A stretch of DNA of 57,522 nt from Candidatus Magasanikiibacteriota bacterium (GTDB taxonomy: Bacteria > Patescibacteriota > Patescibacteriia > Magasanikbacterales > UBA922). Shown here piece after piece: positions 6,346 to 32,964 of the stretch. A program made the position numbers and the translations under genes. The notes under the pieces are model-generated. The model saw only the letters and a program-made list of their open reading frames with translations. It searched no databases and was not told the DNA's origin. The stretch lies in the NCBI GenBank assembly GCA_003510435.1, contig DOMK01000020.1, forward strand, positions 1 to 57,522. Reading direction: 5' to 3'. Position 1 is the first letter of the stretch. Each line of letters begins with the position of its first letter.

Positions 6346-7620
6346 ATGTCAAAAAAACAAAAATTAGAACTCCTCGCTCCCGCTGGTAGTCCAGAAAAAA
6401 TGGAATATGCTTTTGCCTATGGAGCCGATGCGGTTTACATGGGTATACCGGATTTTAGTTTGCGCGTTAGAATAAATAAATTTGATTTGGCTGACGTAAA
6501 AACTGCGATTGCCACAGCGCATAAATTAAAAAAGAAAATTTATGTGACCGCCAATATTTATGCTCATAATGAGCATCTAGAAAAATTACCGGTTTACTTA
6601 AAAAAACTAAATCAATGGCGTCCTGATGCTTTGATTATTTCTGATCTTGGGGTAATGATGCTAGCGAAAAAGTATGCGCCAAAAATTAAAATTCATGTTT
6701 CTACTCAAGCCAATGTGACTAACTGGGCGGCAGCCAAGTTTTGGGCAGACTCTGGGGCAAGTAGAATTATTTTAGGTCGGGAAGTGACGCTCAAAGAAAT
6801 AAAAGTTATTCATAAAAAATATCCCAAAATTGAATTGGAACATTTTGTTCATGGGGCTATGTGTATGAGTTATTCTGGTCGGTGTATGTTATCAGCTTGG
6901 TTAACTGGTCGGTCGGCCAATCTAGGTGATTGTGCTCAGCCTTGTCGGTGGCAGTATGGAGTAGAAAGTATCAATGCCGAATTGACTGAACCAAATCGTT
7001 CGGACATGAAAATCCCTGTAGAAGAAGATAAAAATGGTACATATATCTTTAATTCCAAAGATTTGTGTCTGATAGAATATTTAGGAGAATTGATTGATGC
7101 GGGAATTGTAAGTTTTAAAATTGAGGGTCGGGCGAAGAGTGTGGCATATCTTTCTACTATTGTTAAGGCTTATCGTGAAGGGTTAGATCCAATTAATAAT
7201 AAAAGATCAGAAGATCAGAAGATCAAAAAGAAATTAAAAAATTTAAAAAAGAAATATTTGGATAGTTTAATGACCAGAGGTTACACGACTGGATTTTTAT
7301 TTGGGAGAGATAAAGTAGAGCAAAATACTGAATTTAGTCATATCAATGGCGAAGAACAATTTGTCGGTGAAGTAGTAGACTGTGTTAAATTTAATAAAAA
7401 ATATTTAGCCATTGTTAAAGTTCATAATGTTTTGCAAGTTGGTGATAAAGTGAGAATTATGATACCTGGTGAAGAAAAAGATTTGTCAGTAACTATAAAG
7501 AAGATGTATAATAAGGATGATAAGGAAATAGAGAGTGCGCATGGAGGAACGCAGGAGTTGGTAATGGTTTTGGTAAATAAAGAAATTAAAAAGTTTAGTA
7601 TTTTATTTAAGTCAAAATAG
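6346..7620 (+). CDS. Peptidase U32 family protein (TrhP/YegQ-like)
   Basis: ELLAPAGS, GADAVYMG, HVSTQAN, FVHGAMCMSYSGRC, GDCAQPCRW, SKDLC, FKIEGR. Confidence 0.92.
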   Translation: MSKKQKLELLAPAGSPEKMEYAFAYGADAVYMGIPDFSLRVRINKFDLADVKTAIATAHKLKKKIYVTANIYAHNEHLEKLPVYLKKLNQWRPDALIISDLGVMMLAKKYAPKIKIHVSTQANVTNWAAAKFWADSGASRIILGREVTLKEIKVIHKKYPKIELEHFVHGAMCMSYSGRCMLSAWLTGRSANLGDCAQPCRWQYGVESINAELTEPNRSDMKIPVEEDKNGTYIFNSKDLCLIEYLGELIDAGIVSFKIEGRAKSVAYLSTIVKAYREGLDPINNKRSEDQKIKKKLKNLKKKYLDSLMTRGYTTGFLFGRDKVEQNTEFSHINGEEQFVGEVVDCVKFNKKYLAIVKVHNVLQVGDKVRIMIPGEEKDLSVTIKKMYNKDDKEIESAHGGTQELVMVLVNKEIKKFSILFKSK

Positions 7621-7713
7621 AACTCAAATTTCCCAAATGACCCAAATTAACCAAAATTAATTTTCGAAAATTTGTGGTAATTTTGGTGATTTGTGTTCTA
7701 TTCAATATTTAAT

Positions 7714-8967
7714 ATGTCTAAAAATAATTTTATAAAAAAAATTCAAGCTAGAGAAATTCTTGATTCACTTGGTAATCCTACAGTAGAAGCCAAAGTGATT
7801 TTGGATAATGGTATGATAGGTATTGGTAAAGTGCCATCAGGCGTTTCTACTGGTGTACATGAAGCAGTGGAATTGCGTGATGGGGGAAAACGTTATGGGG
7901 GCAAAGGAGTTTTGAAAGCAATAAAAAATATTAACACTACTATTGCCAAAGCTCTGCAAGGTATGAAAATTGATAATTTGTCATTGATTGATCAAAAAAT
8001 GTTAGAGTTGGATGGTACTAAGAATAAAGCTAATTTAGGAGGCAATGCAATTTTGGCCGTATCTTTGGCGTGTGCGCGAGCTGGGGCCATAGCTAATGAT
8101 GTGCCACTTTATAAATATCTCCGTTCTACCTATAAAGTTGCAGAAAAAAAATTTCGTATGCCAATACCAATGGCTATGATAATAGAAGGTGGTAGACATT
8201 CTGACAGTGGTTTATCCATACAAGAATTTATGGTTATTCCACGTCATAGTTTATTACGCGAACGAGTCCGAATGTGTTCTCAGATTTTTCATGCATTAGG
8301 AAATTTATTGAGTCAAAAAGGTTATAGTACTGCTTTTGGAGACGAAGGTGGCTATGCACCTGATTTATTAAATAATGAAAGAGCTTTGCAATTAATTATT
8401 GAAGCAATTAAGCAGGCTGGTTGGATACCAGGGAAGCAAGTCTTTTTGGCTATGGATGTTGCAGCCTCTGAATTTTATCGTCATGGTAGTTATTTTTTTA
8501 TGAACAAAAAACAAGGTTGGCGTCCAGCCAAGTTGATTGAAACTTATCGTGCTTGGCTCAAAAAATATCCTTTGTACTCAATTGAAGATGGTTTGGCTGA
8601 AGATGATTGGGTAAACTGGCGTGAATTAACTAAGGAACTAGGAAAGAAAGCAGTATTAGTAGGTGATGATTTATTTGTGACCAATGTCGAACGTATCCAA
8701 AAAGGTGTAGATGAAAAAATAGCTAACGCAGTCCTAATCAAACCTAATCAAATCGGGACTGTGACAGAGACTATGGCGGCTATAAAATTAGTAAAGCAAA
8801 GTGGCTATCAAACAATTATTTCTCATCGTGGTGGAGAAACGGCTGATACTTTTATCGCGGATTTGGCTGTGGCTGTCAATGCCGAATTTATAAAAACCTC
8901 TATTTCTCGTTCCGAGCGTACAGAGAAGTATAACAGGTTGATGGAGATAGAGAGCGAAGTTATCTAA
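7714..8967 (+). CDS. eno: Enolase (divergent)
   Basis: AREILDS.GNPTVE, PSGVSTG.HEAVELRDG, QEFM, GDEGG, DVAASEF, IEDG, GDDL, KPNQIG, SHR. ATG at 7714 is preferred. Confidence 0.93.
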   Translation: MSKNNFIKKIQAREILDSLGNPTVEAKVILDNGMIGIGKVPSGVSTGVHEAVELRDGGKRYGGKGVLKAIKNINTTIAKALQGMKIDNLSLIDQKMLELDGTKNKANLGGNAILAVSLACARAGAIANDVPLYKYLRSTYKVAEKKFRMPIPMAMIIEGGRHSDSGLSIQEFMVIPRHSLLRERVRMCSQIFHALGNLLSQKGYSTAFGDEGGYAPDLLNNERALQLIIEAIKQAGWIPGKQVFLAMDVAASEFYRHGSYFFMNKKQGWRPAKLIETYRAWLKKYPLYSIEDGLAEDDWVNWRELTKELGKKAVLVGDDLFVTNVERIQKGVDEKIANAVLIKPNQIGTVTETMAAIKLVKQSGYQTIISHRGGETADTFIADLAVAVNAEFIKTSISRSERTEKYNRLMEIESEVI

Positions 8968-8992
8968 ACAAAAGTTTTCGTATTGAGTCAGC

Positions 8993-9718
8993 TTACTGTG
9001 AAGAGGTTGATTTTAAAGCAGACATATAATTTTTTAATACAAAAATGGCTTCTTTTTTTAAATTATTTTTTACCCAATTTTTTTCTTTGTCATTTAGTAA
9101 TTCTCCCAATCCACGCAACATCTGATTATCTTTTATGGTTTCAATAATTGTTATACAGCTAGACAAATACTCTGTATTGCTTTTTTGGCTACGGGTTTCC
9201 AATACCATTCGTTCAATATCCCAGTTTTCTTTACCAAAAAAATATATATCATAAACATCGCGGGCGGCAGTTTCCTTGCGTTCGGATAGGGCCATAAGTT
9301 TACTGGCAAATAAGTAGTCTTTTTTGGCCACAAACATTGCTATGCCCAAGAATTCTTTTATTTGATAATGTTTTTTAATATCCGGCAACAATGTGCGTGT
9401 ATTTATTTCTATTTTAATATTATGCTCGGTATCGCCATAGGATAACAAGAAAAACAGAGTGAATCGTTTAATTTTCTCGTCTTTTATTTGACCATATGAT
9501 AGTAAAATATTTTTAATTTTGTCCATTACTATTTTTTGGGTTTTTTCGTCAGCGGTTAGCAAGTCAAAATCCAAATCCACTGAAAAACGCGGTAGGTTAT
9601 AAAAAAAATACGCGCAGGTACCACCTTTGAAACCCAATAAAGAAGAAATGGTGGTGTCAGTATAAATGTCTCGTAATATTTTCCCCATGATTAATTGATG
9701 AATTTCTTTATTCAGCAT
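8993..9718 (-). CDS. abiEii: AbiEii-family nucleotidyltransferase toxin
   Basis: FKGGT...RFSVDLDF, KIEI, K..AL..RK...RDVYD; overlaps the upstream antitoxin gene by 11 nt. Confidence 0.85.
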   Translation of the reverse strand: MLNKEIHQLIMGKILRDIYTDTTISSLLGFKGGTCAYFFYNLPRFSVDLDFDLLTADEKTQKIVMDKIKNILLSYGQIKDEKIKRFTLFFLLSYGDTEHNIKIEINTRTLLPDIKKHYQIKEFLGIAMFVAKKDYLFASKLMALSERKETAARDVYDIYFFGKENWDIERMVLETRSQKSNTEYLSSCITIIETIKDNQMLRGLGELLNDKEKNWVKNNLKKEAIFVLKNYMSALKSTSSQ

Positions 9719-10280
9719 ATTGTTTAAAGTAATTATTTAGCCGTTTAATTAATTGTTGATTGTTGTAAATTTTTACCAAGGCAAAACATTTTTCCCAATT
9801 TATTTGGGATAGATTGTCAAAATAGTATTTTGGATATAAGTAAATGGTGTCCAAAAAAGCTCGTTCAACCGTGGCAATGCTAAAGCCATTATTATTAATT
9901 ATTCCGTCAGTGTTAAACAAAATTCTGTCTTTTAATTTTCTAAAAGTGAAATTATATTTATCCATTTTTAAAGTTTTAGGCCATTTTCCTGCCACAAAAA
10001 TTGTTTCATAATACTGAAAAATAACTCCAGCTTCGCGTAAAACTGTTTCAAAACTAATATATGACGGAGTATAGATGCTGGTGGCTAATTCTTTGGGATT
10101 ATAATTTGTATCCTTTACAAAAATACCGCGACTCAATCTAATTAAAGCGCCAGTTTTGACATAGTATGAGGTTTTAGCTTTTAAATTGTTAACATTGGTT
10201 TCTTCCCAAATCAAAGCCAGATCTTTAATATTTAAGACTGTTTTTGGGGATTTATACAATTTTGCAATCAGATTATCCAT
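9708..10280 (-). CDS. abiEi: AbiEi-family antitoxin/transcriptional regulator
   Basis: N-terminal wHTH-like segment ending LIRLSRGIF, PSYISFETVL..AGVI.Q, ATVERAFLDTIY. Confidence 0.8.
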   Translation of the reverse strand: MDNLIAKLYKSPKTVLNIKDLALIWEETNVNNLKAKTSYYVKTGALIRLSRGIFVKDTNYNPKELATSIYTPSYISFETVLREAGVIFQYYETIFVAGKWPKTLKMDKYNFTFRKLKDRILFNTDGIINNNGFSIATVERAFLDTIYLYPKYYFDNLSQINWEKCFALVKIYNNQQLIKRLNNYFKQYAE

Positions 10281-10315
10281 ATTGTTAGATTTAAGTTATG
10301 TTTACCCTTACTTCC

Positions 10316-10376
10316 ATTATACATTATTTAGACTGTCTTGTCAAGTATTGACAAAGACGACTTTTTTTGATATACT
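10316..10376. promoter_or_regulatory. Back-to-back divergent sigma70 promoters sharing a TTGTCAA-GTA-TTGACAA palindrome
   Basis: Minus strand: TTGACA(10344-10339)-17-TATAAT(10321-10316). Plus strand: TTGACA(10348-10353)-17-TATACT(10371-10376). Confidence 0.85.
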
Positions 10377-10455
10377 TGTCTGTTTAGTAAGATAGGATTA
10401 CTGTATCTAAACACAAAAAGGCTTAAATAAGCCAAAATTTTGTTCATTACAACTG

Positions 10456-10603
10456 TTCCAACGTGAAAAATAGTTTTTTGTATTTATAAAAATTATTTTT
10501 CGCGTTGGAAACAACGTGTTTACCTATATATTTAGCAATCGGTTTAGCGTTGCGAAAGCAGTCAGCGTGATGGTCACGCAGTCTGCACAGTTCTTGTTAC
10601 TGG
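10456..10603 (+). repeat. Conserved structured leader, copy 1
   Basis: TTCCAACGTGAA...TTCGCGTTGGAA hairpin, then ACAACGTGTTTA, TCGGTTT, GCAGTC-hairpin and CAG..CTGGTT; repeated at 11406-11553. Confidence 0.85.
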
Positions 10604-10661
10604 TTCCTCAACGCCGCGTCTTGCTTGCAAGCAGACACATGCGGCACGAAAGGAGGTCGTC

Positions 10662-11129
10662 ATGATGACGACCCGCTCCTCGCTCCTCGCTCTTACCCTG
10701 GCCACCATCCTCTACACCCTCGTGGGATGTGGACCCGCGCCGCAGTCCGTATACTGCGAACGATGGATGACCAGCATGTGCACGTTGCATGAGACGTGCA
10801 CCGAAGTGCCGAGCGACAACCTCGTCTCCAACATGACCTTGGCCACCATGTGGCCAGATGATTGTAAGGAGATGGAACAATCACACATCTTTCGACTGTC
10901 GAGTATCAACTACTCCACCTGCCAGATCACGTACTATACTGGCATGGGGTACAAGGTATTCCAAATGTATGATTGCAACATCGTCGGTTCCGGATACACC
11001 TGGTTAATGCGTGATATGGAGGATTGTGACTACATGCAGGACGATCAGTGCGAGGACGGCGACCCCGACACCGAGGACTTCTGCGGGGATTACTACTACC
11101 CCAACGAGTGCCTCTACCGCGTCAAGTAG
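10662..11129 (+). CDS. GC-rich Cys-rich putative lipoprotein
   Basis: SD AGGAGG at 10651-10656; signal peptide with lipobox LVGC; 10 further Cys; C-terminal CEDGDPDTEDFC. Confidence 0.7.
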   Translation: MMTTRSSLLALTLATILYTLVGCGPAPQSVYCERWMTSMCTLHETCTEVPSDNLVSNMTLATMWPDDCKEMEQSHIFRLSSINYSTCQITYYTGMGYKVFQMYDCNIVGSGYTWLMRDMEDCDYMQDDQCEDGDPDTEDFCGDYYYPNECLYRVK

Positions 11130-11287
11130 GCACGACGCGGACAACACCGCCCACACTCGTGGGGGACCGCAGGTGACCTTCCCGACTCGTTCTTTCGAGC
11201 CATTAGTTCTTTCAAAGGAGGACGAGGCGGGTGGCAGTGATGCGTTCATACAATGCGCACACTGATCCACTCGCCTCGAGGCTATGA

Positions 11288-11330
11288 CGAGATTTATCTT
11301 TATTATAAAAGAGGGGAAAGATAAATCTCG
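11288..11330. repeat. 14-bp perfect inverted repeat between the two GC-rich units
   Basis: CGAGATTTATCTTT / AAAGATAAATCTCG, preceded by the palindrome GCCTCGAGGC. Confidence 0.75.
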
Positions 11331-11405
11331 GCTTCAATTGCTTTATTCTTTTTTTAAAAAAGGATAGAGTTGAGAAGAAAAAATTAAATTTGATCTTTAA
11401 AAATT

Positions 11406-11553
11406 TTCCAACGTGAAGAATAGTTTTTATTATTTTAAAGATTGTCTTTCACGTTGGAAACAACGTGTTTAATATATATCTGGTAGTGTTTTCGTTTCGG
11501 TTTCAATATAGCAGTCTACGCGAAGGTCGCGTTGGTTGCCCAGGTTTTCTGGT
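11406..11553 (+). repeat. Conserved structured leader, copy 2
   Basis: TTCCAACGTGAA...TTCACGTTGGAA-ACAACGTGTTTA, TCGGTTT, GCAGTC-hairpin, CAG..CTGGTT. Confidence 0.85.
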
Positions 11554-11605
11554 TACGCAGAGTCGTATTGCCAAAAAGGCTTAAACGACTAAAGGAGAAC
11601 GCCCC

Positions 11606-12064
11606 ATGAATCTCGACTCTTTCATTCTTCTGGTTATTGTTCTGTTCAAGGGTGTCACCCCATCCACCCCCATAGTTCAGGAGAGTTTCAGCCTGGTGTT
11701 CTCGAACATCGAGTTCGAGGCCGGCCGGGTCACCCTGACCGAGAAGTCAAGGGCTATCCTTGACGACATCGCCAGGGAGCTACGATGCTACCCCGGTATT
11801 AAGGTGCGGGTCGAGGGGCATACCGACGGCCGGGAAGTCGTCGGCTTCAACGCCAACCTTGTTCTGTCCCAGGAGCGGGCGTTGAAGGTGCTCGTGTACT
11901 TAACGACGCAAGGTGGTATGCCTTCCTCCCTCTTAGACTATAGAGGGTATGGGGCTGAACTGCCCATATCAGGGGGATACACCACCAGTGCCCGAGAAAA
12001 AAATCGGCACGTGGAGTTCCATGTGACCGATATAAGCACGTTTCACAACGTGTGTGACGAATAG
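11606..12064 (+). CDS. GC-rich OmpA/MotB C-terminal-like peptidoglycan-binding domain protein
   Basis: IEFEAG, VEGHTD, N..LSQERA, GYGAELP, NRHVEF; hydrophobic N-terminus; SD AAGGAG at 11592-11597. Confidence 0.85.
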   Translation: MNLDSFILLVIVLFKGVTPSTPIVQESFSLVFSNIEFEAGRVTLTEKSRAILDDIARELRCYPGIKVRVEGHTDGREVVGFNANLVLSQERALKVLVYLTTQGGMPSSLLDYRGYGAELPISGGYTTSAREKNRHVEFHVTDISTFHNVCDE

Positions 12065-12289
12065 TCATACCAGCACCACGGCTGGCAACACCGTGGTCGA
12101 TGGCAGTTTCTAGTGCCATACGTTAGCCTTTGCCTGCAAAGGTAAGGAAAACTAGAAAATGGTGTGCCAGACGCGTTAAGCGTTGTGGCATCCATAACTC
12201 GACCTGCGAGACAGAACCCGGGGGGACTTGTTCCACCGCGCCTCACTCACAGGTCCCCCCGTTGTAGTTTATAATTAAATCTTTTTATT

Positions 12290-12394
12290 CCTAGAGGCTT
12301 GCCTCGAGGTTTCCTTGCAGGGAAGAGTTTGAGAAACCGTAGGTTTTTCAAAAAACACTTCCTTGATGGATACCCCGTCAGCTTGCTGCGGGGT
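12290..12394. repeat. ~105-nt element bounded by two GCTTGC-centred hairpins
   Basis: CCTAGAG-GCTTGC-CTCGAGG (12290-12309) and ACCCCGTCA-GCTTGC-TGCGGGGT (12372-12394). Confidence 0.55.
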
Positions 12395-12427
12395 CATTCA
12401 TTTGTAATTTGCAACGGAGAACATTAA

Positions 12428-12462
12428 ATAAAAAAACTCGCTTTGTTGGCGAGTTTTTATTT
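12428..12462. terminator. Bidirectional-type terminator downstream of the SemiSWEET gene
   Basis: AAAAACTCGC/GCGAGTTTTT stem with A and T tracts. Confidence 0.65.
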
Positions 12463-12471
12463 TTTGTTGTT

Positions 12472-12732
12472 TTAGATTATGGCTGTGATAGCTGTAATAA
12501 TACCCAAGATTATTCCTGGAATATTGGCAATAATAATGGGCCAGTCTTTTTTGGTTTTTAAAACACCGTATAATGTCCAGGCCGTGCAATTTATAGTAGT
12601 TATAATTGGCAAGACAATTGATCCTGGTTGACCCGCTAGATTTAATCTAATTTGATCAATGTAAGAAAAATACATGGCAACTGCCATGAAGGAAGCAAAC
12701 CAGCCGATTTTGTCTGTGATTTTTTGGTTCAT
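12472..12732 (-). CDS. SemiSWEET/PQ-loop family sugar transporter
   Basis: 86 aa with three hydrophobic helices; YIDQI, N...W..YG..K..KDWPII.AN.PG. Confidence 0.8.
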   Translation of the reverse strand: MNQKITDKIGWFASFMAVAMYFSYIDQIRLNLAGQPGSIVLPIITTINCTAWTLYGVLKTKKDWPIIIANIPGIILGIITAITAII

Positions 12733-12746
12733 ATTTTTTTTGTATA

Positions 12747-12831
12747 ATTCTGAGCCCCGTCATTCAATGGAATAAGTATTGCTTTTGTTGGTGCAGTGAA
12801 GTAAGGGATTCTTCGCTACGCTCAGAATGAC
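12747..12831. repeat. GTCAT/ATGAC-family palindromic element (intergenic)
   Basis: ATTCTGAGC (12747-12755) pairs with GCTCAGAAT; right arm GGGATTCTTCGCTACGCTCAGAATGAC resembles the right arm at 37164-37200. Confidence 0.65.
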
Positions 12832-12854
12832 AGTATTATACCTAAAAATCAACA

Positions 12855-12883
12855 TTGAAACAAACTAATATTTTTGGTATAAT
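12855..12883 (+). promoter_or_regulatory. Putative sigma70 promoter of gpmI-1
   Basis: TTGAAA-17 nt-TATAAT. Confidence 0.65.
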
Positions 12884-12892
12884 GTCTTTACT

Positions 12893-14485
12893 ATGCTAAA
12901 AAAAGAAAAAACTCAGCGAAAACCAATAGTTTTAGCCATTTTGGATGGTTTTGCTTTGGCGAGTCAAAAGAATAAGGGCAATGCTATTACTCCAGAGACA
13001 GCGCCACATATTTTTTCTTATCTCAAAAAATATGCCAATTCTACTCTCAAAACTTGGGGAGAAAATGTTGGTCTATTTCCTGGTCAACAGGGTAATTCTG
13101 AAGCTGGGCATATAAATATTGGTGCGGGTAGAATTGTAAAGCAAGATTTGGTCGTAATTTCCGAAGCCATTCATGATGGGACTTTTTTCAAAAATGAGGC
13201 TTTTAAACAAGCGATTCATCATATCAAAAAATATAATACCGCTGTCCATGTGATGGGTTTGCTTACTGATGGCAATAGCGCTCATGCTTATCCCGAGCAT
13301 TTTTATGCCATGTTAGAATTATTCCGTCGGGAAGGTATAGACAAAGTTTATTTGCATTTGTTTACTGATGGCCGAGATTCGTCTCCCCATGGGGCGGCTC
13401 ATTTTCTCAAAGAATTGCGTGGACACATGTTAGGTCAAGAAAAAATCGCGACGATTATGGGTCGGTTTTATGCTATGGATAGAAACAAAATTTGGGAAAG
13501 AACCGAGAAAGCTTACGAAGCCATGGTTTTGGGCAAGGGCTGTGTAGCTCTGAGTGCCGAAGAAGCTTTGGAACAGTCATACAATCGAGGTGACACTGAT
13601 GAATATATTTGTCCGTCAGTCATTGTAGAACCCGTCTCCGCTAAAGCTTCGCCGGGCAAGAATAATAAACCTACAGGCCTAATAAAAGATAATGATGCGA
13701 TTTTTTTTGTTAATGCGAGAAGTGATCGCGCTCGGCAAATTACCAAAGCTTTTGTCCAATCAGATTTTAATAAATTGAATCCTGGTTCTTTCAAAAGAAC
13801 CAAAGTACCACAGAATACTCGCTTTGTGGCTATGACAGATTTTGGTCCAGATTTACCAGATATTTTTACAGCTTTCCCTAGCCCAGATATTGCCAATTGT
13901 TTGCCTTTAGTCGTGGATGGTAATTATAAACAATTATATATTTCGGAAACAGAAAAATATGCGCATGTCACCTACTTTATCAATGGTGGTTTTGCTGATC
14001 CACTCAATGGTGAAGAGCGAGAACTAATAAAATCACCACCAATTCGTTCTTATGCTGATAAGCCAGAGATGAATACCAAATTAATGGTAGAAAAAATTGT
14101 AAAATATTTAAATACTGGTAAATATAATTTTATTTGTGTTAATTTTCCCAATACTGATATGGTAGGTCATACGGGAGATTTAATCGCTGCCAAAGAAGCG
14201 GTTTTAGTCGTTGATAATGCAGTCGCCAAAATTGTGGAAACAGTTTTAAAATTAGACGGGCAAATGTTAATCACGGCTGATCACGGCAATGCGGATGAAA
14301 TGATAAATGAAAAGACTGGAGAAATAATGACTGAACACACCAAGAATCCAGTGCCATTTATTTTAGTGAAAAAAGGTAAGAAAACAAAAATGAAAAATGG
14401 TATTTTGGCGGATGTGGCGCCAACACTTTTGAAATTGATGGAAATAAAACAGCCGAAAGAAATGAGTGGTAAAGCGTTGCTATAA
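12893..14485 (+). CDS. gpmI: 2,3-bisphosphoglycerate-independent phosphoglycerate mutase, copy 1
   Basis: LAILDG, GNSEAGH, DGRD, GRFYAMDR, ETEKYAHVT, DMVGHTG, DHGNA. Confidence 0.93.
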   Translation: MLKKEKTQRKPIVLAILDGFALASQKNKGNAITPETAPHIFSYLKKYANSTLKTWGENVGLFPGQQGNSEAGHINIGAGRIVKQDLVVISEAIHDGTFFKNEAFKQAIHHIKKYNTAVHVMGLLTDGNSAHAYPEHFYAMLELFRREGIDKVYLHLFTDGRDSSPHGAAHFLKELRGHMLGQEKIATIMGRFYAMDRNKIWERTEKAYEAMVLGKGCVALSAEEALEQSYNRGDTDEYICPSVIVEPVSAKASPGKNNKPTGLIKDNDAIFFVNARSDRARQITKAFVQSDFNKLNPGSFKRTKVPQNTRFVAMTDFGPDLPDIFTAFPSPDIANCLPLVVDGNYKQLYISETEKYAHVTYFINGGFADPLNGEERELIKSPPIRSYADKPEMNTKLMVEKIVKYLNTGKYNFICVNFPNTDMVGHTGDLIAAKEAVLVVDNAVAKIVETVLKLDGQMLITADHGNADEMINEKTGEIMTEHTKNPVPFILVKKGKKTKMKNGILADVAPTLLKLMEIKQPKEMSGKALL

Positions 14486-14595
14486 TTTACGAATTTCCAA
14501 TTATCAATTTTCAAAAGCATTGAAAATTGTAAATTACTAAATTGAAATTTAAATCTATCCTTTATTGTTTTCAAATTTCGAATTTTTTATAAGTT

Positions 14596-16176
14596 ATGTC
14601 CAATAAAAATAAACCCGTAGTCTTAGCCATATTAGATGGTTGGGGAATTGCTCCAGATGGAGAAGGGAATGCGATTACCCGAGCCAAGACTCCCAATTTC
14701 AACAAATTTGTTCGAGAGTATCCAGTCATGACTCTTCATGCTTCGGGCAATGAAGTTGGTCTTATGTTTGGTCAAATGGGAAATTCTGAAGTTGGGCATT
14801 TAAATATTGGGGCGGGCCGAGTTTATTACCAATCATTACCACGAATTAATCATCATATTAATGATGAAAGTTTTTTTATTAATAAAGCTTTTTTGAGGGC
14901 GGCTGAACAAGTGAAAAAAAATGATTCTGCTTTGCACATTATTGGTCTTATTAGTCCGGGCAATGTACACTCTAGTCAAGATCATTGTTTTGCTTTGCTT
15001 GATTTTGCCAAAAGACAGAAAATAAAAAAAGTTTATATTCATGTTATTTTGGATGGTCGAGATTGTATCTATAATTCGGGAATTGATTTTGTTAAAGAAT
15101 TGCAAAAGAAAATAAAAGAATATCATCGTGGAGAAATTGCTTCTATCTCTGGTCGTTTTTTTGCTATGGACAGAGACAATCGTTGGGATAGAACAGAAAA
15201 AGCTTACAATGCCATGGCCATGGGGGTAGCAGCCAAATATTTTAAAGATCCAATTGATGCGATTGAAGAATCTTATAAACGAGAAGTTTATGATGAAGAA
15301 TTTGTACCAGTAGTAATAGGAAAAGAAGGTAAACCAACGGCCATTGTAAAAAATGGTGATGCTTGCATATTTTTTAATTTTCGTTCAGATCGAGTGCGTC
15401 AATTGACCAAAGCGTTTGTGTTGCCTGGTTTTAATAAATTTAAAAGAGAATATATTAAGGACCTGTGTTTTGTGACTATGACAGAATATGAAAAAGAATT
15501 ACCAATTGTGGTGGCTTATGGTCCACAAGTAGTACACAATTCTTTGGCTGAGACGATTAGTAAAGCGGGATTAAAACAGTATCATGTGGCCGAAACTACC
15601 AAGTATGCTCATATTACATATTTTCTTAATGGTACAGTGGAGGATCCTTTTCCTGGTGAAGATAGAAAAATTGTTTCATCAGTCATGGTATCATCTTATG
15701 ACCAAGCGCCAGAAATGTCGGCTGGAGAAATTACCAAGGAAGTAATCAAAGCGATTGAATCAGAAAAGTATGATGCTATTATGTTAAATTATGCCAATGT
15801 TGATATGGTGGGACATACTGGTAAAATGAAGGCCACTGTTGAAGCTTGTGAAATGGTAGACAAATGTTTGGGAGCAGTGGCTGAGCATGTGTTGGCAAAA
15901 AATGGTGTTTTACTCATTACCGCTGATCATGGTAATGCTGAAGAAGTAAAAAATTTGCAAACTGGAGCCATTGATAAAGAACATAGCACCAATCCAGTTC
16001 CTTTTATAATTATTAGTAATCCATTGCGTGGTCAAGCTGGTCCGACTGGGGATCCACCGGAGGGTGATCTTAGTTTGATGCCACCAGTAGGAATGCTGGG
16101 TGATGTCGCACCGACTATGCTTTCTATTATGGGAGTAGAAGTGCCGAAGGAGATGACGGGAAGAACGTTGTTGTAA
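14596..16176 (+). CDS. gpmI: 2,3-bisphosphoglycerate-independent phosphoglycerate mutase, copy 2
   Basis: LAILDGWG, QMGNSEVGH, DGRD, GRFFAMDRD, NFRSDR, DMVGHTG, DHGNAE. Confidence 0.95.
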   Translation: MSNKNKPVVLAILDGWGIAPDGEGNAITRAKTPNFNKFVREYPVMTLHASGNEVGLMFGQMGNSEVGHLNIGAGRVYYQSLPRINHHINDESFFINKAFLRAAEQVKKNDSALHIIGLISPGNVHSSQDHCFALLDFAKRQKIKKVYIHVILDGRDCIYNSGIDFVKELQKKIKEYHRGEIASISGRFFAMDRDNRWDRTEKAYNAMAMGVAAKYFKDPIDAIEESYKREVYDEEFVPVVIGKEGKPTAIVKNGDACIFFNFRSDRVRQLTKAFVLPGFNKFKREYIKDLCFVTMTEYEKELPIVVAYGPQVVHNSLAETISKAGLKQYHVAETTKYAHITYFLNGTVEDPFPGEDRKIVSSVMVSSYDQAPEMSAGEITKEVIKAIESEKYDAIMLNYANVDMVGHTGKMKATVEACEMVDKCLGAVAEHVLAKNGVLLITADHGNAEEVKNLQTGAIDKEHSTNPVPFIIISNPLRGQAGPTGDPPEGDLSLMPPVGMLGDVAPTMLSIMGVEVPKEMTGRTLL

Positions 16177-32537: not shown

Positions 32538-32964
32538 TTCATTACATAGTAGATGATCGTCCGCCGAATCCGTCAGCTGACGGAGAAGGTGGAAGGAAAG
32601 TCCGAACATTCACCTGGTGCAAATCAGGTAACAGAGTAGCGGGTAACTCCCGTCGGTCGTAAGACTAGAGGTGCGAGCAGTGACGCCGAGACGCGAAAGT
32701 GTTGAGGCATCATGTAAAAGCGCAAGCTTTTTACATGATGAACTCTGATAGTGATATTAGAGGTGAAACGGCAAAATCCTTACTTGAATGAAAGAACAGC
32801 CTTTCGATTCACTTCGTTCGCTTAGAGTAAACTAATTGTTAGATACTTTGAGTGAATGAAGTGCAATTTGATTGGAAAAGTTAGTTCGCTAGACCCAGCT
32901 GGTAACAGCCTGGGCAGATAAATGATCGTCCTAGACAAAATTCGGCTTATAGCTATGTAATGAA
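32538..32964 (+). ncRNA. rnpB: RNase P RNA
   Basis: P1 TTCATTACATAG/CTATGTAATGAA; P2 GATGATCG repeated pattern; AGGAAAGTCCG; ACAAAATTCGGCTTAT near the 3' end. Confidence 0.92.

Follow-up and report, generated by a model that had tools for sequence, protein, structure and literature searches.

A probably constrained hairpin in the duplicated leaders of two GC-rich genes of a Candidatus Magasanikiibacteriota bacterium

Contig DOMK01000020.1 of assembly GCA_003510435.1, from Candidatus Magasanikiibacteriota bacterium, was analyzed over its full length of 57,522 nucleotides (nt), hereafter the window. The bacterium is uncultured and comes from groundwater; the iPGM encoded in the window is 92% identical to a protein assigned to Magasanikbacteria. 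The base composition of the window is 33–34% GC, and it holds RNase P RNA and tRNA genes; the Rfam scan found no rRNA gene in it. A 1.9-kb island of ~55% GC sits between an AbiEi/AbiEii pair and a SWEET gene and carries two plus-strand genes: open reading frame 1 (ORF1, 10662–11129), an orphan encoding a Cys-rich protein of 155 residues with a lipoprotein-type signal and no Pfam match, and ORF2 (11606–12064), encoding an OmpA-domain protein of 152 residues. The leaders of these genes, in units 1 and 2, share a hairpin, H1 (10558–10586 and 11511–11539), which a sequence-only reading had proposed as the core of a new cis-regulatory RNA motif. H1 is a real hairpin and is probably constrained, on thin statistics, and it lies in what looks like a private duplicated mRNA leader, not a demonstrable new riboswitch-like family.

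H1 reads GCAGTC-A-GCGTGA-TGG-TCACGC-A-GTCTGC in unit 1 and GCAGTC-T-ACGCGA-AGG-TCGCGT-T-GGTTGC in unit 2, where 12 of 13 positions are paired, two of them as G·U. Every string from which the motif had been proposed is present at its place: the inner stems and loop (GCGTGA-TGG-TCACGC, 10565–10579; ACGCGA-AGG-TCGCGT, 11518–11532), the enclosing GCAGTC (10558–10563 and 11511–11516) and TGC (10584–10586 and 11537–11539), the preceding TCGGTTT (10539–10545 and 11497–11503) and the following CAG...CTGGTT segment (10588–10604 and 11541–11553). Counted with the spacer before H1, the TCGGTTT element spans 10539–10557 in unit 1, where the GC-rich stretch begins, and 11497–11510 in unit 2. RNAfold and RNAalifold recover H1 in both copies (−13.9 and −12.0 kcal/mol), and it is the sole helix that RNAalifold keeps with covariation. 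It is present in the minimum free energy (MFE) and centroid folds of both leaders irrespective of the 5′ end chosen. The copies align without gaps and differ at 9 of 29 nt. The two double compensatory changes described earlier (G-C to A-U and U-A to C-G) are both there, accompanied by one G-C to G·U change and by one U·U to U·G gain; no pair is lost, and the loop and its closing pair are unchanged between units where the stem varies.

How unusual this conservation is depends on the starting copy and on transition bias. When nine random substitutions are placed in copy 1, at least 12 of 13 positions remain paired in 0.2–0.3% of trials, and in 2–6% when copy 2 is the starting point, so that P ranges overall from 0.002 to 0.06. 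A slide (register) control is clean, with 96% paired against 21–46%. A shuffle control (130 of 500) is powerless with two sequences, and whole-leader folding z-scores are weak (−2.3 and −1.2). The caution that two copies lend weak statistical support is thus borne out.

H1 matches no known RNA family. Rfam 15 gave no gathering-level match within the island, and even at E ≤ 10 nothing overlaps 10539–10661 or 11486–11605, in agreement with the earlier statement that no known riboswitch is recognizable. The nearby matches at that threshold are generic miRNA-type hits on AU-rich hairpins further upstream, those in unit 2 ending at 11474, and terminator-type hits at 12358–12465. H1 was not flagged by the terminator scan and is followed by ACAGUUCUU and CCAGGUUUU in the two units, not by the U-tract within 0–2 nt of a G+C-rich stem that marks an intrinsic terminator or attenuator. 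Its loops, GAUGGUC and GAAGGUC, lack the GGA of CsrA/RsmA sites, for which the Shine-Dalgarno (SD) sequence AAAGGAG would suit as a second site.

Upstream of H1, each unit has a long AU-rich hairpin formed by an inverted repeat, at 10456–10510 in unit 1 (23 pairs, 2 G·U; −26.9 kcal/mol on the plus and −19.0 on the minus strand) and at 11405–11460 in unit 2 (24 pairs, 4 G·U; −26.8 and −17.1 kcal/mol). Taken together, these two hairpins and the two copies of H1 contain eight G·U pairs in the plus strand and none in the minus-strand folds. The imperfections of the AU-rich hairpins are all G·U on the plus strand, except for one A·C in unit 2. The plus-strand folds are the more stable by 7.9–9.7 kcal/mol for the long hairpins and by 0.9–2.5 kcal/mol for H1, and under a strand-symmetric model the split of 8 versus 1 imperfections has a one-sided P of ~0.02. 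This asymmetry favors a fold in plus-strand RNA, or in the plus DNA strand. It also implies transcription from upstream. The AU-rich hairpins, with 23 and 24 pairs, have the ~20 bp or more of near-continuous double-stranded RNA on the transcribed strand expected of an RNase III-type site, of which H1 (11–12 pairs) falls short.

Comparison of the units shows that the leader motif is only the 3′ end of a duplicated module of greater extent, which begins at the AU-rich hairpin. The units are 96% identical in the left arm of the inverted repeat and 83% in the right arm, 86% in a third copy of the hairpin foot, 69% in H1 and 52% in H2, the short hairpin after H1 (10588–10602, CAGT-TCTTGTT-ACTG, with a U/C-rich loop and containing the boxA-core-like GTTCTTG; 11540–11552, CCAG-GTTTT-CTGG). 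The 3′ arm together with the third box is 100% identical over 20 nt. From the next hairpin, H3, to the ATG, identity is 59% versus 48% in a coding control, which is background. The structure said to be shared by the leaders therefore stands in part: the leaders are paralogous and the H1 pairing is kept, but the hairpins before the SD and at the start codon are analogous rather than homologous. A hairpin does precede the strong SD of each unit, as had been described. In unit 1, H3 (10613–10645) lies just 5′ of the SD AAAGGAGG (10649–10656), and the palindrome GGTCGTCAT-G-ATGACGACC (10655–10673) indeed covers the ATG at 10662, so that SD and palindrome occupy 10649–10673. In unit 2, a nonhomologous H3 (11561–11590, AGTCGT...ACGACT) and the SD AAAGGAG (11591–11597) occupy 11561–11597. 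The SD is predicted to be mostly paired in both units (probability unpaired 0.10 and 0.32), with different predicted partners. The loop of the unit 2 H3 also holds CAAAAAGGCTTAAA (11572–11585), a 14-nt exact repeat of 10414–10427 in a small hairpin of the upstream leader; by a rough estimate such a repeat is expected by chance ~0.01 times in 2.2 kb, and it may be a recombination scar.

The third foot copy allows an alternative pairing in each unit. In unit 1 the 3′ arm can pair with it as CGCGTTG-GAAA-CAACGTG (10501–10518), which overlaps the −35-like TTGGAA of a candidate promoter, and in unit 2 as CACGTTG-GAAA-CAACGTG (11450–11467), followed by TTTAATATAT; the latter is flagged as terminator-like, yet its U-tract is merely UUUA. 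Both units also have a TTG-started frame of eight codons (10440–10466, MFITTVPT; 11390–11416, MIFKNFPT) whose TGA stop falls within the left arm. We rejected the idea that an upstream ORF spanning the GC-rich leader is conserved, since it is present in unit 1 only (10516–10665), and also pairing between leader and trailer ends, which was equaled in 28 of 200 and 12 of 200 shuffles. In the unit 1 trailer (11213–11283), a second SD-like AAAGGAGG occurs by eye, and a short ATG frame (11240–11287) ends in the conserved tail (11264–11387), which contains a 14-bp hairpin at 11288–11330.

Two back-to-back promoters with consensus matches at 11 of 12 and 12 of 12 positions lie at the left edge of the island. 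P1 (10348–10376; TTGACA-17-TATACT with TG, 11 of 12) is likely its main promoter and is conserved in the closest related locus, L015 (positions 8230–8302); its partner points to abiE on the minus strand (10344–10316). The near-perfect pair (10316–10376) has −35 boxes just 3 nt apart (TGTCAA-GTA-TTGACA) and faces abiEi/abiEii on one side and the island on the other. The P1 leader contains a small hairpin, GGCTTAAATAAGCC (10420–10433), with look-alikes after the consensus promoters of two GC-rich genes in L015. A small-hairpin pattern, GSCTTAAWTWAGSC and then AAA(A)TT, recurs at 10420–10433 here and at 8313–8326 and 3530–3517 (minus strand) in L015, that is, 45–60 nt past TTGACA-17-TATACT in three GC-rich gene units of two genomes. 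A moderate candidate promoter, P2 (10505–10532, TTGGAA-16-TATATT), was flagged by the promoter scan in unit 1 only; its unit 2 equivalent has poor −10 spacing. Neither the stretch from P1 to ORF1 nor that from ORF1 to ORF2 contains a canonical terminator, and the sole canonical one is the bidirectional intrinsic terminator at 12432–12458 that closes the island and is conserved in L015.

Metatranscriptome contigs from two samples were compared over 44.5 kb of the window (7600–14600 and 20001–57522). They match ORF1, at 10675–10885 and 10729–10926, and nothing else in 7600–14600; in 20001–57522 the RNase P RNA (32547–32801) alone is matched over its length. ORF1 is thus the sole protein-coding gene in the compared DNA with metatranscriptome contigs, and because these contigs fall on it, its mRNA is abundant in situ. 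As to whether the region is transcribed at all, ORF1 is, and the leader itself is uncovered.

ORF1 and ORF2 stand out from the rest of the window in composition and in translation signals. The G+C content at third codon positions (GC3) is 0.77 in ORF1 and 0.68 in ORF2, against 0.15–0.33 in 41 of the 42 other genes; the exception is a 112-residue ORF at the window edge (0.42). An SD core lies no more than 20 nt from the start in 3 of 44 window genes, namely ORF1, ORF2 and the peptidase U32 gene (6346), the remainder having AU-rich upstream sequence and no SD. Both proteins matched only themselves among 5.8 billion clustered proteins, with no close relatives of ORF2, and HMMER searches with ORF1 against 1.8 billion representatives returned only weak Cys-repeat matches in giant adhesin-like proteins. 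The neighbors assigned by the Pfam scan are peptidase U32, enolase, AbiEii, a 190-residue protein without a name, SWEET and iPGM. An assembly chimera was considered and ruled out, because 13 contigs from independent assemblies and samples carry the island DNA with identical junctions at 99.9–100% identity; no empty or rearranged form was seen among them.

Two multi-copy elements lie nearby. One, at 12287–12403 between the unit 2 trailer and the terminator, resembles a miniature inverted-repeat transposable element (MITE). Five other assemblies break there or run on into different DNA, and contig depth over it is ~3- to 8-fold above that of the island's own contig; in an alternative assembly (L004, 3594–4096) another locus comes after the MITE, one with tRNA- or tmRNA-like, GC-rich 3′ ends (GGTTCGAATCC...CCA). 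The other, a short element at ~12800–12838 between SWEET and iPGM, is where many contigs of other origin start or end, with depth up to ~5-fold.

Comparison with relatives places the island at a site of variable content. L015, with flanks ~84% identical, has the same P1, tail hairpin and terminator. Between these landmarks it has a single GC-rich gene, a different one that encodes TSP3 repeats, and both hairpin modules are absent. By eye, a hairpin ends 0–5 nt before the SD in both GC-rich genes read in L015. In the more distant relatives L017, L019 and L021, aligned through their iPGM homologs, the site is empty and enolase lies directly beside iPGM. Compared with L015, this genome has unit 2 inserted between tail and terminator (~1.04 kb with the MITE counted in), flanked by the direct repeat ATTAAAT (11383–11389 and 12423–12429) or by 13 nt at 85% identity (GAAAAAATTAAAT and GAGAACATTAAAT). 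The two copies of the module differ by 31% in H1, more than the ~16% by which the flanks of this genome and L015 diverge. The copies therefore do not represent a recent local duplication; they are either older than the split from L015 or separate arrivals, and this hints at unsampled relatives. Each unit holds a single gene, looks foreign in GC and has its own expression signals, and the units sit between conserved genes and vary between close relatives; in this they resemble phage "morons" and other self-contained promoter-ORF-terminator units of atypical composition. Unlike morons, they have no phage context, neither the 5.8 billion proteins nor the phage and plasmid records contain a donor or homolog, and what they share is a leader module and not genes.

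A wider family was not found when homologs were sought: the module has two members, in one genome. A covariance model (R1) found no third copy in 155 kb comprising the window and seven loci of relatives. The scans of genomes and metagenome contigs used patterns for the upstream hairpin or promoter block, not H1. In 596 Gb of species genomes the pattern GTTGGAAACAACGTGTTTA had three chance matches in unrelated taxa; in metagenome contigs CAACGTGAAN{28,44}GTTGGAAACAACG, which required the third box and so excluded hairpin-only copies, had one chance match inside an mnmG-like gene. Viral contigs gave no match to the hairpin pattern, the H1 pattern, the flank of the third copy or a hairpin-only pattern, and blastn against phage and plasmid records found no related DNA. 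A third AU-rich hairpin does occur on an unrelated 10.5-kb contig from DNA runs of the same samples (X1–X4), at a depth 2.3–2.7 times that of this genome. There it is followed by GAATAACACCCATACAGTGTGGGTG and a different GC hairpin, with neither the third box nor H1. The AU-rich hairpin is therefore a dispersed element.

Several explanations can be weighed for H1 and its setting. We tentatively favor, at somewhat short of even likelihood, a constitutive structural role in a duplicated leader or intercistronic module, in processing, stability or insulation, with no ligand sensed. Least unlikely among the alternatives is that H1 has no function of its own, the copies being decaying duplicates and the covariation a product of chance and of selection by the reader among many GC-rich hairpins. 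With two sequences, neutral P values of up to 0.02–0.06, an uninformative shuffle control, weak leader z-scores and a closest relative that lacks the module, such an outcome is conceivable; however, nine differences among 29 positions break no pair and repair one mismatch, H1 still aligns gap-free where the neighboring leader has drifted to background identity, and both leaders keep it in their MFE and centroid folds whatever the 5′ end. Next in rank, and also unlikely, H1 and the U/C-rich stretch after it could form a boxB-boxA-like site that loads NusB/NusE and renders polymerase termination-resistant on long structured leaders, as in rRNA operons. The order of a hairpin and then a linear U/C-rich element, early in a long untranslated transcript, is that of rrn leaders and lambda nut sites (boxB hairpin plus boxA), and in unit 1 GTTCTTG (10590–10596), directly after H1, agrees with 6 of 7 positions of the boxA core GTTCTTT; in an alternative alignment the units share TTCT(T/G)GTTAC at 9 of 10. 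Measured against the published consensus GYTCTTTAANA (PMC5725501), which may not be that of the host lineage, the leaders fare less well: unit 1 (GTTCTTGTTAC) agrees at 7 of 11 positions and the best register of unit 2 at ~6 of 11, the TAA part is absent from both, and unit 2 has GTTTTCT in place of the GTTCTT core. A boxA-like 6-mer is by our estimate expected ~20 times per strand in the window, and the element sits in the loop or stem of predicted H2. A regulated switch is more doubtful still. A protein bound at the H1 loop (GA-NGG-UC) and SD might repress translation, or the three CAACGUG segments might act as an attenuator in which a ribosome finishing the eight-codon frame covers the left arm and frees the right arm for the short GAAA hairpin. 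The paired mini-ORFs with their TGA in the left arm, the 20 identical nucleotides of 3′ arm and third box, the terminator-like flag in unit 2, the conserved loop and closing pair of H1 above a variable stem and the mostly paired SD in both units would all fit. Yet the long hairpin, at −27 kcal/mol, is the first to form and a far stronger competitor than the 7-bp one (−9), the latter is followed by just UUUA, AT-rich DNA has many TTG triplets and the mini-ORFs are not independent (their flank is 70% identical), the H1 loop has no GGA, the SD pairs with different partners in the two units, and no regulator was identified.

Less probable again is that H1, the AU-rich hairpin or both act in DNA, as single-strand recombination or boundary sites of cassettes of the attC or IS200/IS605 kind, or that they are template-switch quasi-palindromes with no RNA role. 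The GC-rich DNA begins in both units at TCGGTTT, 14–19 nt before H1, the content of the site is swapped between relatives, unit 2 is an ATTAAAT-flanked insertion with respect to L015, a third AU-rich hairpin is present in the unrelated 10.5-kb contig, and G·T wobble asymmetry is also expected of a folded DNA strand. Like integron attC sites, the AU-rich hairpins are imperfect inverted repeats with AAC...GTT feet, fold strand-specifically and stand between promoterless-looking single genes in a cassette-like array; their feet, TTCCAAC and GTTGGAA, agree at 6 of 7 positions each with the attC R″ and R′ cores (RYYYAAC/GTTRRRY). But the long hairpin of unit 1 has no unpaired or extrahelical base and that of unit 2 only one A·C, conservation runs at least 20 nt past GTTGGAA into H1 without ending at the GTT crossover, and H1 itself has no attC feature. 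No IntI was found among the Pfam-scanned neighbors, nor any integrase, transposase or HUH gene beside the island (AbiE pair, enolase, SWEET, iPGM); no hairpin copy follows the last gene, ORF2, as an attC array would need, the L015 cassette has neither hairpin, and none of the 13 contigs, which come from several samples and are identical, shows the site empty or rearranged. A new riboswitch class, binding a metabolite or an ion, is very improbable. The position in the 5′ untranslated region (UTR), the conserved pairing, a hairpin near the SD and the lack of an Rfam match would be compatible with one; the conserved part, however, is ~50 nt of simple hairpins with no junction, pseudoknot, conserved bulge or internal loop, the parts that would form an expression platform are not conserved, the generic features of a riboswitch (a multi-helix aptamer with conserved unpaired nucleotides, linked to such a platform) are not seen, the downstream genes encode a lipoprotein and an OmpA-domain protein rather than transport or metabolic functions, and there are two copies only. 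The cis-regulatory role originally proposed for the motif is not supported: we found no evidence of a response to a ligand or signal, and what is conserved amounts to a 29-nt hairpin and a 4-bp hairpin.

In the favored reading, that of a constitutive structural role, the two leaders are the 3′ halves of paralogous copies of one ~150-nt noncoding module, each preceding an unrelated GC-rich, SD-led accessory envelope gene in an AT-rich host otherwise without SD. The module comprises, in order, the AU-rich hairpin (23–24 bp), the third foot copy CAACGUG, able to form pairs with that hairpin's 3′ arm around a GAAA loop, an AU-rich spacer that also resembles a weak sigma-70 promoter, H1 and the U/C-rich H2. 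It would act in plus-strand RNA, lying within the long 5′ UTR and between the cistrons of a message initiated at P1, with a possible contribution from the internal promoter P2, and H1 may influence how a GC-rich, highly structured message is stabilized, processed or insulated. The data show the paralogy and where it ends, the pairing kept in H1, the G·U asymmetry between strands, the scarcity of SD sites in the host and ORF1 mRNA in situ; from there we infer that the module is transcribed, that the long hairpin is processed in the manner of RNase III sites and that H1 has any stabilizing role. Stabilizing or insulating 5′-UTR stem-loops are known from the hairpins of Escherichia coli ompA and from the RNase III-generated 5′ stabilizer of phage SP82 in Bacillus subtilis, where the processing site generates a protected 5′ end. 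The proposed role resembles these in that the mRNA of an envelope protein would have, in its untranslated leader, GC-rich hairpins acting constitutively as RNA with no ligand. Unlike them, H1 lies at least 19–24 nt from the predicted 5′ ends, and it shares no sequence similarity with them and occurs in a host whose leaders are otherwise AT-rich, unstructured and without SD. The early and late mRNAs of phage T7 carry intercistronic RNase III hairpins, and the present arrangement is similar in having a hairpin of at least 20 bp before each gene of a polycistronic transcript, paralogous repeats and sense-strand G·U pairs. This likeness extends to the AU-rich hairpin and not to H1 (13 positions), and the internal loops of T7 sites are absent here.

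A number of observations weigh against the favored reading. Strong G>C skew of the plus strand, through strand-biased C-to-T mutation, could yield some of the G·T asymmetry without selection, and template-switch "palindrome correction" can mimic compensatory change. Only two copies of the module were found in everything searched, and the covariation has no real statistical power. No transcript contig lies over the leader or ORF2, an absence that proves nothing in itself. The closest relative, L015, expresses its GC-rich gene at the same site without the module. Finally, at ~19–24 nt or more from any predicted 5′ end, H1 is too far away for a classic 5′-terminal protective hairpin unless the transcript is processed.

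A broader form of the idea, which we consider as improbable as a role in DNA, is that the whole module is a dedicated RNA "gate" by which a bacterium of the candidate phyla radiation (CPR), itself SD-less, expresses GC-rich envelope genes with SD sites as a class apart. The gate would consist of the eight-codon frame ending in the left arm, the AU-rich hairpin, the third foot copy with its GAAA refolding, H1 and H2. Which fold forms would depend on the state of translation or on RNase III cutting the long hairpin, and the refolded 5′ end together with H1 would set the stability and translation of each cistron. The related hairpin in another contig of the community would then make the module dispersed and not a private duplication. 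On its own, H1 is a small two-copy leader hairpin of local interest, and its value lies in its context: the module fronts orphan GC-rich genes that are among the very few SD-bearing genes of this ultra-small bacterium. If it recurs elsewhere, it could be modeled and traced, and if it controls processing, stability or translation, it may provide a handle on a second, SD-dependent regime by which CPR bacteria could express fast-evolving surface proteins.

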